Source: an archaeon
GTDB lineage: Archaea; Nanobdellota; Nanobdellia; Pacearchaeales; GW2011-AR1
Assembly (NCBI GenBank): GCA_018697295.1
Contig: JABHTJ010000002.1
Coordinates: 162,955 to 226,954, forward strand
DNA length: 64,000 nt
Reading direction: 5' to 3'
The translations under genes and the position numbers were made by a program. The notes under the pieces are model-generated. The model saw only the letters and a list, made by a program, of their open reading frames with translations, had not been told where the DNA came from and searched no databases. Positions 32,467 to 36,644 of the stretch are shown in pieces (the first letter of the stretch is position 1; each line of letters opens with the position of its first letter).

Positions 32467-32799
32467 TTATTCGTTTGATTGAGCGTCTTCGATAGCTTCT
32501 GCGTCTGCCATTGGAGCTTCTGATGATTCTCCTCTTGGAGCTCGGTCATCGTCTCGTGGAGTCATTGGACGAGCTTCGTTAACATTTAATGCTCTTCCTT
32601 CGATTTCCTTTTGATCCATATCGGCCATTGCCTTTTTAGCTGAGTCTTCATCGTTGATTGTTACAAATCCAAATCCTTTTGATCTTTTAGAAAATTTGTC
32701 TACAATTACGTTTGCTTCATCAACTCCGTAGCTTTCGAATAATGCCGCTAGTGCTTTATCATCAATACTCCAGGCTAAATTACCTACATATAATTTCAT
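32467..32799 (-). CDS. RRM RNA-binding protein
   Basis: KLYVGNL (RNP2), RSKGFGFV (RNP1), LNVNEAR; GGAGG RBS. Confidence 0.95.
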   Translation of the reverse strand: MKLYVGNLAWSIDDKALAALFESYGVDEANVIVDKFSKRSKGFGFVTINDEDSAKKAMADMDQKEIEGRALNVNEARPMTPRDDDRAPRGESSEAPMADAEAIEDAQSNE

Positions 32800-32906
32800 A
32801 TTTATTTATCCTCCCGTGATTTAATTGTAAATTGCATTCTTAGAAACATTCCTTATATCCTTGAATTTCTTACTGATTTTGATTATTTAAAGGTTTGTAA
32901 TTAGTT

Positions 32907-33612
32907 GGCTTTGTGTAAAAAGTCTAGTTAATGACTCACTTTATACACAAAAATCTCAAGAATATATAATTTAGGCATATAATTTTTTTAATTTTCCATT
33001 ATAATTAATTCTTATATGAAAATGTATCTGGTTACGATTATCTATCGCCTTCTCGGCAGTTTCTTCGTCCGGGAAGGTTAATTCAGCTTTTAATTTGAAG
33101 GACTCATAAGAGTTTAATTGGAAAGGTATTGAAAGAATATAAAGAAATGGATTTTTTGCATGAAAGAAGTGCAATGATAATAAAAAAGAGGCTAGCAGTG
33201 GTTGAATTTGTTCACGGGTTAGAATTAATTCTCAAAGCAATTCTAATAAGAAAAGGTTATTGTATCTATAAATTCAAGAACAATAAGATATTCAAGAATA
33301 ATGAAAAAATTGAAAGACTTGTATCCTCTGATAGGACTATAGAGCTAGAAGGTGTCATAAAATTCTTTAAGAAAGAATATCCAGAGCTTTCTTTTAATCT
33401 AGTTGATAAGTTGAGAGTTCTTAGAAATCAGATTACTCACAAAGGCACGGAAATAAGTGAAAAGAAAAGGGATTATTTTATTGGTGCCATAAATTGCTTA
33501 ATTGAGGTTTATGAAAAAGAAGATATAAGAAATAGAAAATTCCTTGGAATTATTAGGCAGGCAAAATTAGATATTTGACTTTATACACAGAAGCCACTTA
33601 ATCCACAAAGCC
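32907..33612. mobile_element. Non-autonomous mini-transposon / mobile insertion cassette (IS1595-ISPna2-like ends) carrying a HEPN gene
   Basis: Left end GGCTTTGTGTAAAAAGT; right end reverse complement GGCTTTGTGGATTAAGT; direct repeat TAATTAGTT at 32898-32906 and 33613-33621; no transposase inside. Confidence 0.8.
33129..33578 (+). CDS. HEPN-domain protein (putative RNase toxin/defence effector)
   Basis: N-terminal helix GLELILKAIL (ExxxK) and LRVLRNQITH (R-X4-H). Confidence 0.72.
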   Translation: MKEYKEMDFLHERSAMIIKKRLAVVEFVHGLELILKAILIRKGYCIYKFKNNKIFKNNEKIERLVSSDRTIELEGVIKFFKKEYPELSFNLVDKLRVLRNQITHKGTEISEKKRDYFIGAINCLIEVYEKEDIRNRKFLGIIRQAKLDI

Positions 33613-33615
33613 TAA

Positions 33616-34728
33616 TTAGTTAAATTGCAGTATGATTCCTATGATAAATGCAAGAGTTAATAGGATTATGATTGGTGTGTTGATGAAAACCTTTATTTCA
33701 GGTTTTCTTTGTCCTTTTTTCTCCTCTTTTGCTCCTTTATTGATTAGCAGAATTAAAACTCCAGTTATTCCTGTCGAAATCACTCCTGCGATTCCAAGAA
33801 TCGAAGAAAATCCTAACAAATTGAATTTTTGGATTATGATGTATAGAATTAGTGGCATTAAGGAGGTGAATATGAATGTTTTTCTCTTTGAGAAGTTAAG
33901 GTCGAAAAGACAGCTATCTCTTAGGGAAAATGAAAGTACGAAATAGGATGTGAGCATGGTGAATATTCCGAGAATTATTATGATTGGTCCAAAAGAGAGC
34001 GTTGCGACTTCGGTTACGCTTTTTCCAAGGACTCCGACAAAGGTTGCCGTGAATATTGTGTAGAGAATGACTGGAATTGATAGTCCGATGAAAATTGCTT
34101 TTTTGAAGTTTTTCTCTTGACCTTTTATTTCGAGACGTAGTTCTGGGATTGCCGTGAAGCCAAGTAATGCAAATAATATTACTCCTATTGGAAATGTGAA
34201 ATTATTTGGCGGGATTGTTGTAAGATTTGCTGGATTAATGTTTTGGAGGTGGTAAATAAATAATCCGAGAATGATTGCGATGATTGCGATGACGCCATAT
34301 GTTTCAACTTTTTTGAGGCTCTTTAATCCTTCTCGTAAGAGTAACGTCATGACAAGCCAGAATAAGAATCCAAGAAATAGTGGGTTGATGTTTCCTGGAA
34401 GAAGCTGGGAAAAACTTTGACCTTCTCCGATTAGGTATGCGATTAGTGCAGAATAAACTCCAAAGATTACTGTTAGAAACATTATTTTTTCTCCCCAAGG
34501 TCCTAGGTATATTTTTGCATAACCTGTGAGTTGGTGTTTTGATTTTGTTCTTAGAGTTACTTCTGCAAGAGAAAAATTAATGAAAAGCATGACAATGGAG
34601 AGAATGATGAGCCAGAAGATTCCGACGAGAAAACCTGATTTTGCGAAAACAAATGGAAGACCAAGAATTCCTGCACCGATAACTGCACCTGAGAGTGTGA
34701 ATGTTGTTGCCCAGAATTTTTTATTCAT
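33616..34728 (-). CDS. Aromatic amino acid permease family transporter
   Basis: GAVIGAGILGLP, about 11 TM helices, GFTAIPE. Confidence 0.88.
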   Translation of the reverse strand: MNKKFWATTFTLSGAVIGAGILGLPFVFAKSGFLVGIFWLIILSIVMLFINFSLAEVTLRTKSKHQLTGYAKIYLGPWGEKIMFLTVIFGVYSALIAYLIGEGQSFSQLLPGNINPLFLGFLFWLVMTLLLREGLKSLKKVETYGVIAIIAIILGLFIYHLQNINPANLTTIPPNNFTFPIGVILFALLGFTAIPELRLEIKGQEKNFKKAIFIGLSIPVILYTIFTATFVGVLGKSVTEVATLSFGPIIIILGIFTMLTSYFVLSFSLRDSCLFDLNFSKRKTFIFTSLMPLILYIIIQKFNLLGFSSILGIAGVISTGITGVLILLINKGAKEEKKGQRKPEIKVFINTPIIILLTLAFIIGIILQFN

Positions 34729-34838: not shown

Positions 34839-36644
34839 ATGGTAGAAATTGTAGTAAATGATAACTTTAACGAAGCAGGTGAAGCTAACTTATTCGAAGA
34901 TATTGGTAATGGGAAATTTGAGTCTTCTGATTTATTTAAACTTAGAATGGATGTAGATGAACTAGTTGAGGATTCGGAAATTAATGAACTTTTATCTTAT
35001 GGGAGTTTTTCTAAAAACTTGGCGTACGATTTGCCTTATCAGAGGTCTGGTGCGATTAAACTTTTGCGAGATTTTAATATGAGTGCTCTTTTGGCTGATG
35101 AGGTTGGACTTGGGAAAACTATTACGACAGGAATGGCGATTAAGGAGGGAATTTATCGTGGGTTTTTGAAAAAGATTGTTATTTTAACTCCTCCAAGTTT
35201 GGTTGATCAATGGGTGATTGAACTTCGAGATAAATTTGGGTTAGAGTTTAATATTATTGAGTCTGCCGAGGATTGGAATAAATTTGATTTTGCTATTGCG
35301 TCAATTGATCGTGTGAAGATTTTTGACAAAGTTACTCGTGGATTCCGGCATAAAAGTGCACATTCTGTTTTGTGGGATTTGGTGATTGTTGATGAGGCTC
35401 ATAAATTAAAAGAAAAAAATACGGTTCGTTGGAAATTTGTAGATCGGCTGCAAAAAAAGCGGTTTTTGCTCTTGACAGCGACGCCATTTCAAAATGATTT
35501 GATTGAACTTTACAATCTTTTACATTTGCTTAAGCGTGGTCACTTGGGAACAATAAAGGAATTTCGGCAAAAATTCTTATACCGAGGAAATAGTCGTCAT
35601 CCTCTTAATCCCCTTGACTTGAAAAAAAAATTAGAAGAAGTTATGGTTCGGCGTCGACGTGATGAAACTGGAATTGATTACAAGGCTCGTGTTCCAAAAA
35701 TTGTTACTGTTGAACTTAGCAAAACTGAGAAGATGATTTATGATAATACTGTTCGATTGTTAAAGGAGAATTATTTTCGTGCAGATGGTCGGGAAATTAA
35801 TGCCCTCTTGATCGTGTTTGCAATTTTGCCAAAGATTACGAGTTCATCTGCTTCGGCTAAAGAGAGTTTGCAAAGAATTATTGATACTGAAACTTACCAT
35901 GAAATTACAAAGACGTTTGCGCAAGGTATACTTGATGATTATGCAACTGTTGAACGCGATTCGAAAATTGAAAAATTGGTTGAGTTGATTGAAGAAATTA
36001 TTTCTCGCAAAAATGAAGATGGAAGTAAATCAGACGAGAAGATTTTAATTTATACTCGGCATCCAACCACACTTCGCTATATTGTTGAAAAGCTCAAGCC
36101 ATTTAATTTGAAAATTATTGAATTTATGGGTGGGCTTGATAGAGAAGAAAAATCGCGAAGGATAGAATCATTTAAACGAGGTGAAGCAGATATTATGATC
36201 TCGACAGATACTGGGGCGGAAGGACTTAATTTTCAGTTTTGTCGGAATTTAATTAATTATGATTTGCCTTGGAATCCGATGTCAGTTGAACAGCGAATTG
36301 GTCGCCTTGATAGGATTGGTCAGAATAGGGATATGTACATTTATTCGTTTGCGACGAAGGGAACGATGGAAGAACATGTAGTTGACCTGATAATAAATAA
36401 GATGTGTTGTGTTGGGCTTGTGATTGGTGAGTTGCCGATTATTTTATTTAATCTTGGACTTGATGGCGAGGGAAAATCTGGAAGAAATAAAATTGAAGAG
36501 AAGTTGATGGCGTCGTTTATCGAAGGGAAAGGGAACTTAGAATTTTTTGCTCGAAACGTAAATGAAATTGCTGCAGAGATTAGTTTAGGCATGAAAGATT
36601 ATGAAAATGATAAAGTTAGCAATAAGAAATTTTTTGATGAATAA
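34839..36644 (+). CDS. SNF2-family helicase/ATPase (YqhH-like)
   Basis: LADEVGLGKT, VDEAH, LTATPFQN, GAEGLNFQ, YDLPWNP, EQRIGRLDRIGQ. Confidence 0.92.
   Translation: MVEIVVNDNFNEAGEANLFEDIGNGKFESSDLFKLRMDVDELVEDSEINELLSYGSFSKNLAYDLPYQRSGAIKLLRDFNMSALLADEVGLGKTITTGMAIKEGIYRGFLKKIVILTPPSLVDQWVIELRDKFGLEFNIIESAEDWNKFDFAIASIDRVKIFDKVTRGFRHKSAHSVLWDLVIVDEAHKLKEKNTVRWKFVDRLQKKRFLLLTATPFQNDLIELYNLLHLLKRGHLGTIKEFRQKFLYRGNSRHPLNPLDLKKKLEEVMVRRRRDETGIDYKARVPKIVTVELSKTEKMIYDNTVRLLKENYFRADGREINALLIVFAILPKITSSSASAKESLQRIIDTETYHEITKTFAQGILDDYATVERDSKIEKLVELIEEIISRKNEDGSKSDEKILIYTRHPTTLRYIVEKLKPFNLKIIEFMGGLDREEKSRRIESFKRGEADIMISTDTGAEGLNFQFCRNLINYDLPWNPMSVEQRIGRLDRIGQNRDMYIYSFATKGTMEEHVVDLIINKMCCVGLVIGELPIILFNLGLDGEGKSGRNKIEEKLMASFIEGKGNLEFFARNVNEIAAEISLGMKDYENDKVSNKKFFDE

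Follow-up and report, generated by a model that had tools for sequence, protein, structure and literature searches.

The transposase-less 706-bp insert described here belongs, judging by its ends and by the transposases encoded between like ends elsewhere, to a family of IS903-like (IS5-family) DDE transposons in DPANN and other archaea. It is probably an immobile deletion relic of that family (we put this reading at about 0.78), carrying the remnant of a HEPN gene whose product would be inactive or impaired. Within the window, by which we mean the whole stretch of 64,000 nucleotides analysed, the element and its surroundings comprise the following features:

32467..32799, minus strand: host gene for an RRM-domain protein (PF00076, E 2.9e-17)
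32884..32891, minus strand: TATA-like box TTTAAATA belonging to the RRM gene, at a distance of 6 nt from the duplication
32898..32906: left target-site duplication (9 bp, TAATTAGTT), read in the sequence
32907..33612, plus strand: whole non-autonomous element, 706 bp, with ends matching elements in relatives
32907..32949, plus strand: A-end (distal to the transposase in autonomous relatives), made of GGCTT plus motif at 32912-32923, a 14-nt spacer and an inverted motif at 32938-32949
32950..33128: internal segment of unassigned origin, bearing most of a 67-aa minus-strand ORF
32971-33174, minus strand: the 67-aa ORF, candidate for the 3' part of a cargo gene now lost
33129..33578, plus strand: DUF3644/HEPN gene without its 5' end, starting at TTG 33129 or ATG 33147, its stop codon (33576-33578) overlapping the B-end inner motif
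33423..33440, plus strand: RNQITH, the HEPN R-X4-H motif
33577..33612, minus strand: B-end (transposase-proximal in autonomous relatives), made of GGCTT plus motif at 33596-33607, a 6-nt spacer and a direct motif at 33578-33589
33613..33621: right target-site duplication (TAATTAGTT), in which the last codon and the stop codon (33616-33618) of the permease gene lie
33616..34728, minus strand: host gene for an amino-acid permease (PF03222, E 3.8e-27)

The boundaries of the element could be read directly. The terminal inverted ends, GGCTTTGTGTAAAAAGT at 32907-32923 and GGCTTTGTGGATTAAGT (reverse strand) at 33596-33612, are alike at 14 of 17 positions and are bordered on both sides by TAATTAGTT; the 17-bp imperfect terminal inverted repeat (TIR) and the exact 9-bp direct repeat of the original prediction were thus confirmed, as was its placing of the permease stop codon inside the right repeat (TTA on the plus strand). 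The degenerate end pattern of the original prediction, allowing up to two mismatches, matched three times in the window, at the two ends and at one site with two mismatches, compared with 0.52 matches expected, and three or more were reached in 3 of 100 shuffles. That the insert is beyond chance follows from the recurrence in relatives of like ends with different 9-bp duplications. GC content is 0.293 in the element and 0.345 in its flanks. When the 179-bp left internal segment was compared with the DNA of two related metagenomic elements, L036 and L040, scores fell inside the shuffled-control range. The 67-aa ORF, which may be the 3' end of a lost cargo gene, had no protein homologue in a search among lengths of 36-118 aa and gave a weak RRM_1 match (E 0.12) in a profile search.

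The insertion lies at the upstream edge of the RRM-protein gene's promoter and exactly at the permease stop codon, a position that leaves both genes undisrupted. The 6-nt spacing between duplication and TATA-like box recurs at 14 of 15 family insertions. Counting the element's own genome, a permease orthologue was found in 43 of the 49 genomes examined for the genus. In 11 of 19 congener loci the RRM gene lies next to the permease, with 96-151 bp between its start and the end of the permease gene. The TIR was present in none of these 19 loci. The empty site anticipated by the original prediction was therefore seen, in that congeners have the RRM and permease genes some 100 bp from each other and no element between them, and the pattern it had named as contrary evidence, HEPN-less relatives retaining both repeats, was not; neither repeat is present at this site in congeners. 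Contigs from four sequencing runs, besides the three possible source runs, showed no differences from the element over the parts covered, an identity compatible with selection or a young insertion alike, and over those parts contained no trustworthy empty-site joint. One candidate joint, 32532-33856, was disregarded, as it came from one contig with a 21-letter side. The sequencing runs listed for this stretch included none of RNA.

A whole-element DNA search of 60 relatives found the same ends at four places in one genome (G031) and in two others (G008 and G054). The match was limited to the terminal ~45 bp, the remaining matches being short AT-rich stretches. Among 17 family elements, 12 had an exact 9-bp target duplication, one a duplication matching at 8 of 9 positions, one an 8-bp duplication and one a degenerate one, while two had none; L016 and L020, which have family ends without a duplication, were excluded from the target-site count. 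Autonomous members are 5.5-7.9 kb long and each encodes one ~412-aa transposase, composed of an N-terminal ~100-aa SWIM zinc finger and a DDE_Tnp_1 domain, together with 4-6 kb of mostly defence-type cargo that includes restriction-modification (R-M) genes, GmrSD, TOTE-primase/NurA/HerA and others. The transposases of L011, L012, L015, L021, L036 and L040 matched PF01609 with E values of 1e-20 to 1e-23. The SWIM cut-off (19.6 bits) was passed in L036 alone (28.2), with L012 (17.7) and L040 (18.9) slightly under it. IS5_2 (NF033579) was the best of 10-11 NCBIfam transposase models, at scores of 130.0 and 126.1 bits that are below its threshold of 140.

The family also includes small elements. 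Two of 48 and 66 bp are coding-free and have target duplications, which implies that mobilisation in trans occurs in the family. Two others without a transposase are L018 (588 bp), with an HNH_3 gene (E 7e-11), and L019 (1028 bp, with a perfect 9-bp duplication), with a 294-aa ORF that contains an RSEIKSH motif and a sub-threshold HEPN match (PF05168, E 0.0019, 18.8 vs 22 bits). The small toxin slot holds a HEPN gene in the 706-bp element as well as in L036 and L040; in L011 it holds a PemK-like ORF (sub-threshold, E 0.0023) adjoining the transposition module.

The ends of family elements have a common anatomy, with a 12-bp motif, TGTGTATAAAGT, in two copies per end, and these copies are presumably transposase binding sites. 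The inverted outer/inner pair of the A-end, at an offset of 26, also occurs in L011, L012, L015, L016, L018, L019, L021, L022, L033 and L034, and the direct pair of the B-end, at an offset of 18, in L011, L012, L013, L015, L016, L019-L022, L031, L032, L036 and L040; the outer B-end motif of the window element has two mismatches to the consensus. Within its own genome, paired-motif ends were found only at the 706-bp element. The internal end-like repeats noticed earlier, ACTTTATACACA at 32938 and 33578, are indeed there, the second overlapping the HEPN stop codon. Their reading as nested ends for capturing or swapping cargo had to be given up: they represent a second copy of the motif that is a constant feature of the family, seen at either end in 9 of 10 larger elements. 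In wider searches with the 17-mer, paired-motif ends were seen in only 29 of 80 loci listed from genome contigs, and single bacterial matches were disregarded, given ~140 chance matches expected by our own arithmetic in 596 Gb of such contigs. Eight exact matches in viral contigs were taken as chance or unrelated, none having a second motif copy and six being one sequence.

The predicted cargo, an R-X4-H HEPN protein in an ORF rich in ATA and AGA codons, was borne out on both counts. R, Q and H of RNQITH are invariant in 43 sequences and N is at least 90% conserved; ATA accounts for 9 of 19 isoleucine codons and AGA for 7 of 11 arginine codons, compared with 328 of 1456 and 200 of 599 in 40 long ORFs of the window. 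The protein has 45 homologues, mostly of 171-173 aa, and for most of them a PF12358 match is precomputed; the window protein itself matched this profile at E 1.2e-5 and 25.4 bits, under the gathering score of 27.6. A search of 400 other genomes from the order returned no HEPN homologue, which, with the shifted GC and codon usage, suggests that the gene is foreign.

The window copy is truncated. Its homology starts at residue 21-23 of full-length relatives, residues 1 to about 22-28 being absent, and the N-terminal helix thus missing is at least 90% conserved in 43 homologues. No trace of the missing N-terminus was found in any reading frame. In the AF2 model of a full-length homologue (pLDDT 87.6), helix 1 comprises residues 4-27. 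The best structural matches of this model were 2hsb_A (Z 10.0, rmsd 2.6, 119 aligned), 5yep_B (9.8), 8xdj_A (9.6) and 7ae2_A (9.0), scores that for helical bundles are weak alone (under ~13, according to the tool), and HEPN entries dominate the top 15. Since the matched range of the model begins at residues 1-5 in 12 of these 15, helix 1 would lie inside the aligned HEPN core. Foldseek placed Csm6 HEPN domains on top (E 6e-3), and a sequence-profile search of the PDB returned chance-level matches only (E of at least 0.33). No defence system was assigned, because PADLOC gave merely weak CARF-HEPN/Csx1/DUF3644 matches (E 1e-3 or weaker). As for a HEPN-MNT module, neither a minimal nucleotidyltransferase antitoxin nor a second conserved ORF was present in the element, and none lies between transposase and HEPN in L040. 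From these alignments and the model, the HEPN remnant is most likely inactive or impaired. Some activity is possible because 143-149 codons are open, ATG 33147 is available and the invariant catalytic-motif residues are all kept.

The likely origin of the element is indicated by the two metagenomic relatives. L040 encodes an MTase, a transposase and a HEPN protein whose stop codon overlaps the inner motif in precisely the way seen in the 706-bp element, and L036 has a transposase and a full-length HEPN gene 175 bp from the same end. As both full-length copies share the slot, orientation and adjoining end of the window copy, the most fitting reading of the latter is a derivative formed by internal deletion. 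One deletion within an L040- or L036-like element most likely removed the transposase, the main cargo and at least the first 20 HEPN codons, and would have left both ends and the gene in the small slot beside the transposase-proximal end. To move again, the element would then need a related transposase to enter the cell. The suggestion to look for further TIR copies with other cargo and an autonomous transposase was rewarded in relatives and not in the element's own genome, where it is single-copy and where we found no SWIM-DDE homologue up to E 10 and no PF01609 match over the cut-off; this genome is 85% complete, and an autonomous copy could be unassembled. Given a HEPN protein short of helix 1 and a genome in which no cognate transposase was found, we take the element to be, most likely, a relic that no longer moves.

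The original prediction had proposed a mobile toxin cassette. Its transposase-less element with HEPN cargo stands, whereas a working, 'delivered' cassette does not fit the missing helix 1, the single copy and the lack of a transposase. The best-placed alternative, which we consider unlikely, is a minimal trans-mobilised cassette that makes a working HEPN protein from ATG 33147 and serves as an abortive-infection-type defence or an addiction toxin. The coding-free mini-elements attest to trans-mobilisation in the family, L018 and L019 offer examples of small transposase-less elements with a single nuclease-type gene (HNH_3 and, at a sub-threshold score, HEPN-like), and the window ORF is open with RNQITH intact. 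Several observations argue against it. First, the absent helix is strongly conserved and part of the aligned HEPN core. Second, the element is known as one copy at one site, and the genome search yielded no transposase. Third, it contains no partner or antitoxin gene. Lastly, the slot and orientation match those of full-length copies in autonomous elements, as expected of a deletion product. A broader possibility, in our view quite unlikely, is that the family regularly yields one-gene mini-transposons (with HEPN, HEPN-like L019 or HNH L018 cargo) that full-size relatives mobilise in trans and that are dropped precisely at the upstream edges of archaeal promoters, the short HEPN being still active as a helix-1-less variant; if true, this would be a transposon-based gene-cassette system by which nuclease or RNase genes spread singly among DPANN archaea.

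An immobile deletion relic thus remains our preferred reading, and the family to which it is assigned differs from the one first proposed. The element had been attributed, as a passenger-carrying derivative, to the ISPna2 group of IS1595, which the original prediction characterised by GGCnnTG ends and AT-rich duplications of ~8 bp. Ends starting with GGCnnTG and an AT-rich target fit that group, but we regard the attribution as very improbable: all six transposases between such ends match PF01609 and not PF12762 (DDE_Tnp_IS1595), their best NCBIfam model is IS5_2, and the expected ~8-bp duplication gives way to one of 9 bp, with 8 bp in one element. PF12762 had no match in the element's own genome, in a search whose control was positive in 1 of 14 genomes (Haloferax). 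Chance repeats, or an integron-type (attC) or recombinase-borne cassette, are in our view highly improbable despite the superficially attC-hairpin-like palindrome of the A-end and the HEPN genes known in integron cassettes (available text of PMC3710099), because inverted-repeat ends, target duplications (12 different exact 9-bp ones in the 17 related elements) and a DDE transposase occur in relatives (L011, L012, L015 and L021 of the 17, plus L036 and L040), no integrase was seen in the related elements, and congeners lack both repeats.

On its own, the window element is a modest find: a deletion derivative left stranded, its passenger gene damaged. Its value is as an independent view of a widespread IS903-like archaeal family that carries R-M and further conflict systems from one very small genome to another. 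To that view it adds ends with two motifs in a conserved but unequal arrangement, minimal elements of 48 and 66 bp as what suffices for trans-mobilisation, and a recurrent HEPN/RNase-toxin slot by the transposase-proximal end. The correction from IS1595 to IS5/IS903-like also removes an assignment that would mislead annotation. Our full-text literature searches found no paper on this family, and the available part of one candidate, PMC6563490, does not describe it.

By sequence comparison, the family transposase is a distant relative of IS903 in the IS5 family. Like IS903B, the family has a DDE_Tnp_1 transposase (23% identity over 309 aa, E 1e-11, BLASTP), and the IS903B TIR, GGCTTTGTTGAATAAATC, is identical to the family's inverted repeat in its first 8 bases, GGCTTTGT. 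IS903B likewise makes a 9-bp duplication (CCATTAACC in the plasmid record examined). The family thus has the PF01609 transposase, GGC-starting inverted repeats and 9-bp duplication of the IS903 group, and departs from it in falling below the IS5_2 cut-off and in not having the compact ~1-kb form without passengers. Whereas IS903 is a 1057-bp one-gene IS of enterobacterial plasmids, the archaeal family has an added ~100-aa SWIM N-terminus, a second subterminal motif per end in an unequal arrangement and 4-6 kb of cargo, and inserts beside TATA-like boxes.

The element resembles MITEs and other non-autonomous DDE derivatives in having the ends and duplication of an autonomous family, no transposase and a dependence on one acting in trans, and its coding-free relatives share this MITE-like trait. 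Unlike typical MITEs, it is single-copy, keeps a gene fragment and has no autonomous partner found in its genome. Its gene resembles the DUF3644/EC042_2821-type HEPN covered in the available text of PMC3710099 in its PF12358 match, its R-X4-H motif and the HEPN fold of the model, and also in being associated with R-M genes and mobile elements, a tie listed for that type in the table of Anantharaman et al. 2013 (PMC3710099). Compared with the forms in that text, this protein family is a stand-alone ~171-aa archaeal form that has no wHTH, REase or zinc-ribbon domain fused to it, and in the window copy the N-terminus is cut short. Finally, whereas the family has no evident antitoxin beside HEPN, a putative toxin role and a transposase of another family, it resembles the toxin-antitoxin modules of the Tn3 family, as presented in the available part of PMC7157771, in having an RNase-type toxin gene in a fixed slot beside the transposition module.

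A 706-bp segment of the window is bracketed by two copies of a 9-bp sequence, and its inverted ends, GGCTTTGTGTAAAAAGT on the left and GGCTTTGTGGATTAAGT on the right (reverse strand), are identical at 14 of 17 positions. The features of this region are as follows:

32467-32799, minus strand: gene for a protein of 110 aa with an RRM domain (PF00076, E 2.9e-17) and an acidic tail
32884-32891: TATA-like box TTTAAATA, upstream of the RRM gene and intact after the insertion
32898-32906 and 33613-33621: target duplication TAATTAGTT, two exact copies, read directly
32907-33612: the 706-bp element
32907-32949: A-end, the end far from the transposase in autonomous relatives
33129 or 33147 to 33578: HEPN ORF, carrying RNQITH
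33577-33612: B-end, the transposase-proximal end in autonomous relatives
33616-34728, minus strand: permease gene (PF03222, E 3.8e-27)
34839-36644: 601-aa ORF just past the permease gene, SNF2-type helicase-like as judged by eye from its translation

The last codon and stop of the permease gene sit inside the right duplication copy, so the insertion restored the end of that gene. The repeat ACTTTATACACA occurs at 32938 and 33578, where it overlaps the stop of the sole sizeable ORF. In this ORF, ATA encodes 9/19 isoleucines and AGA 7/11 arginines, compared with 328/1456 and 200/599 in the surroundings, and GC content is 0.293 versus 0.345. The inverted ends, the exact repeat holding the permease stop, the end-like internal repeats and the ATA/AGA-rich HEPN ORF with its R-X4-H motif were thus all found as the original prediction had described them. 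The insertion is genuine, as are its ends and duplication; the element, present in one copy in its own genome (732 kb, 85% complete), has no transposase.

The ORF scored 25.4 bits against DUF3644, just under the threshold of 27.6; DUF3644 is counted among the HEPN families in a passage of PMC3710099. Its 45 homologues are nearly all 166-179 aa long, most with a precomputed PF12358 assignment. A model of one full-length homologue (pLDDT 87.6) gave its best structural matches to HEPN proteins, which made up most of the top 15 and were led by 2hsb_A (Z 10.0, rmsd 2.6, 119 aligned), while Foldseek placed Csm6 HEPN domains on top (E 6e-3). Because Z values of this size are, by the tool's own warning, weak evidence for helical bundles, the HEPN call rests on fold, profile and motif jointly. 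Homology of the window ORF starts at residue 21-23 of its relatives. The conserved segment EMFKLGQAVFLEGIKKL (positions at least 90% conserved), which is helix 1 of the model (residues 4-27) and falls within the stretch that aligns with the best-matching HEPN structures, has no counterpart upstream of the window ORF in any frame. Judged from its sequence, the HEPN copy in the window is incomplete, having been truncated at the N-terminus.

A DNA search of 60 relatives matched the element through its terminal ~45 bp only: a single contig of the congener G031 held four such matches, and genomes G008 and G054 had them as well. Read out, these places showed two transposons, 7.9 kb and 6.4 kb long, which share these ends and are each flanked by an exact 9-bp duplication of their own, GAGCAGGAA and GGTTTCTTA. 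Of 401 genomes in the order, 118 matched a consensus-end pattern with up to two mismatches; since a reversed-pattern control likewise scattered single matches across genomes, only exact matches and pairs were taken further, and twenty further end-bearing places were read. Among 17 bounded elements, the duplication was an exact 9-bp repeat in 12, matched at 8/9 positions in one, was 8 bp long in one, degenerate in one and absent in two. Two loci were irregular: L016 (G402:C14) has family ends 3.8 kb apart, no duplication and a third, solo outer end inside, and in L017 (G172:C17) two outer ends, 1 kb apart, face the same way. Both loci may be nested or rearranged insertions.

Six elements, four from relatives (L011, L012, L015, L021) and two from metagenomes (L036, L040), each encode one transposase of ~410-420 aa. 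The two metagenomic contigs also carry a full-length HEPN gene in the same slot and orientation as the window copy. L040 reads methyltransferase, transposase, HEPN and B-end in that order, with its HEPN stop overlapping the inner motif just as it does in the window; the HEPN of L036, 171 aa long and sharing 79-83% identity with the window copy, is found past the transposase and three small ORFs, at 175 bp from the B-end. No HEPN homologue was found in the 400 other genomes of the order, and so the gene travels with the element rather than with the host lineage. The simplest history would be an internal deletion that began within the 5' end of the HEPN gene and ended ~180 bp from the A-end, taking out the transposase and main cargo. 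The remaining 179-bp segment (32950-33128) matched neither protein homologues nor the parts of the L036 and L040 contigs that were compared. The original prediction saw here a mobile transposase-less HEPN cassette: the insertion, ends and duplication bear this out, as does mobilisation in trans within the family, but a working single-gene toxin cassette is the less likely, if possible, reading given that the HEPN gene is truncated. The best account of this copy is that of a stranded deletion derivative with a truncated HEPN passenger.

Mobilisation in trans does occur in this family, as seen from eight elements without any coding capacity (L014, L023-L029). Six are 65-66 bp long, their two ends overlapping on one shared inner motif (e.g., L023:563-628), and two are a bare palindromic A-end of 48 bp (e.g., L026:536-583). 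All seven examined for a duplication (L014 was left out) had one, exact and 9-bp in five, matching at 8/9 in one and 8-bp in one. Mini-elements of these sizes define what suffices for mobilisation in trans. Each end contains two copies of the 12-bp motif TGTGTATAAAGT, arranged in a constant manner that differs between the ends: at the A-end an inverted copy comes 14 nt after the outer motif, and at the B-end, which lies upstream of the transposase gene in 6/6 transposase-bearing elements, a direct copy comes 6 nt after it. In the window, the inner copies are precisely the repeats at 32938 and 33578. Both arrangements are present in 9/10 larger elements (L020 has no detectable inner A copy); the inner copies are a family constant rather than nested ends serving cargo exchange, and are most simply read as putative second transposase-binding sites.

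The larger elements carry N6-methyltransferase and specificity subunits with PD-(D/E)XK nucleases (L011, L012), an Eco57I-like 846-aa enzyme with an Hjc-like endonuclease (L022), GmrSD with a D12 methylase (L021) or DUF3800 with GmrSD (L016). L015:1094-4831 encodes a TOTE-type archaeo-eukaryotic primase domain (E 2.8e-27) and, after it, holds NurA-like and HerA/FtsK-like ATPase genes, a conflict system other than restriction-modification carried by a transposon. Of the small elements without a transposase, L018 (588 bp) carries an HNH endonuclease and L019 (1028 bp) a 294-aa ORF that shows a sub-threshold HEPN match and an RSEIKSH motif. In the 7.9-kb element, a PemK/MazF-like ORF (L011:1996-2439, minus strand; sub-threshold E 0.0023) occupies the slot adjoining the B-end, its stop abutting the inner motif, in the position and orientation of the HEPN gene in the window, L036 and L040. 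A DarG-like ORF (PADLOC, E 2e-8) lies two genes away.

A permease orthologue is present in 43/49 genomes of the genus, own genome counted. The RRM gene adjoins it in 11 of 19 other congener loci examined, starting 96-151 bp past the permease end; the window spacing is ~105 bp after subtracting 715 bp. The remaining eight have different neighbours or reach the contig end. RRM proteins are uncommon in archaea. At up to three mismatches, the end sequence was found at none of these 19 loci; the outcome named as refuting the original prediction, relatives that lack the HEPN gene yet retain the repeats, was not observed. Contigs of four sequencing runs, none of them among the three possible source runs, span parts of the region with zero differences, and those of run X6 bridge both element junctions; at their low coverage, no reliable empty-site joint was seen in them.

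With L016 and L020 excluded, 14 of the 15 elements that have a duplication show, on one flank, a TATA-like hexamer beginning 5-7 nt beyond it; this figure needs an independent set, the hexamer list being our own and picked after viewing the flanks. Offsets peak sharply at 6-7, and the background at the same loci is 6.3% of random and 8.0% of intergenic positions. The boxes point away from the element, and insertion seems to take place where archaeal promoters have their upstream edge. Among the matches listed, 29 of 80 exact-end loci in genome contigs have the paired-motif end, by record title 28 archaeal (Pacearchaeota, Woesearchaeota, Aenigmatarchaeota, Micrarchaeota, Nanoarchaeia, Bathyarchaeota, Methanosarcinaceae and Methanoperedens) and one a bacterial MAG.

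All six transposases match DDE_Tnp_1 (PF01609, E 1e-20 to 1e-23) and have an N-terminal SWIM zinc finger, which passes the Pfam cut-off of 19.6 bits in L036 alone (28.2), with L040 (18.9) and L012 (17.7) just under. The sole DDE_Tnp_1-like signal in the own genome (G000:C2:24550-24711; 14.5 bits, E 0.008, sub-cut-off, in a 132-aa open frame) may be what is left of a decayed transposase, or a chance match. The predicted ISPna2/IS1595 membership fails, since the IS1595 domain PF12762 was seen neither in the examined family transposases nor in the own genome. The top NCBIfam model is IS5_2 (130 bits, below the cut-off of 140), and the closest plasmid matches are IS5-like, such as ISAha2 and IS903B (21-26% identity). 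Full-text literature searches found no published description of this archaeal family. The element belongs to an IS903-like archaeal cargo-transposon family; among known elements, the IS903 group within the IS5 family comes closest to it. IS903B, with ends GGCTTTGTTGAATAAATC in its plasmid record, likewise has a 9-bp duplication, and its transposase is alignable with the archaeal one over 309 residues at 23% identity (E 1e-11); the archaeal family differs from IS903 by its SWIM domain, cargo, end anatomy and target choice.
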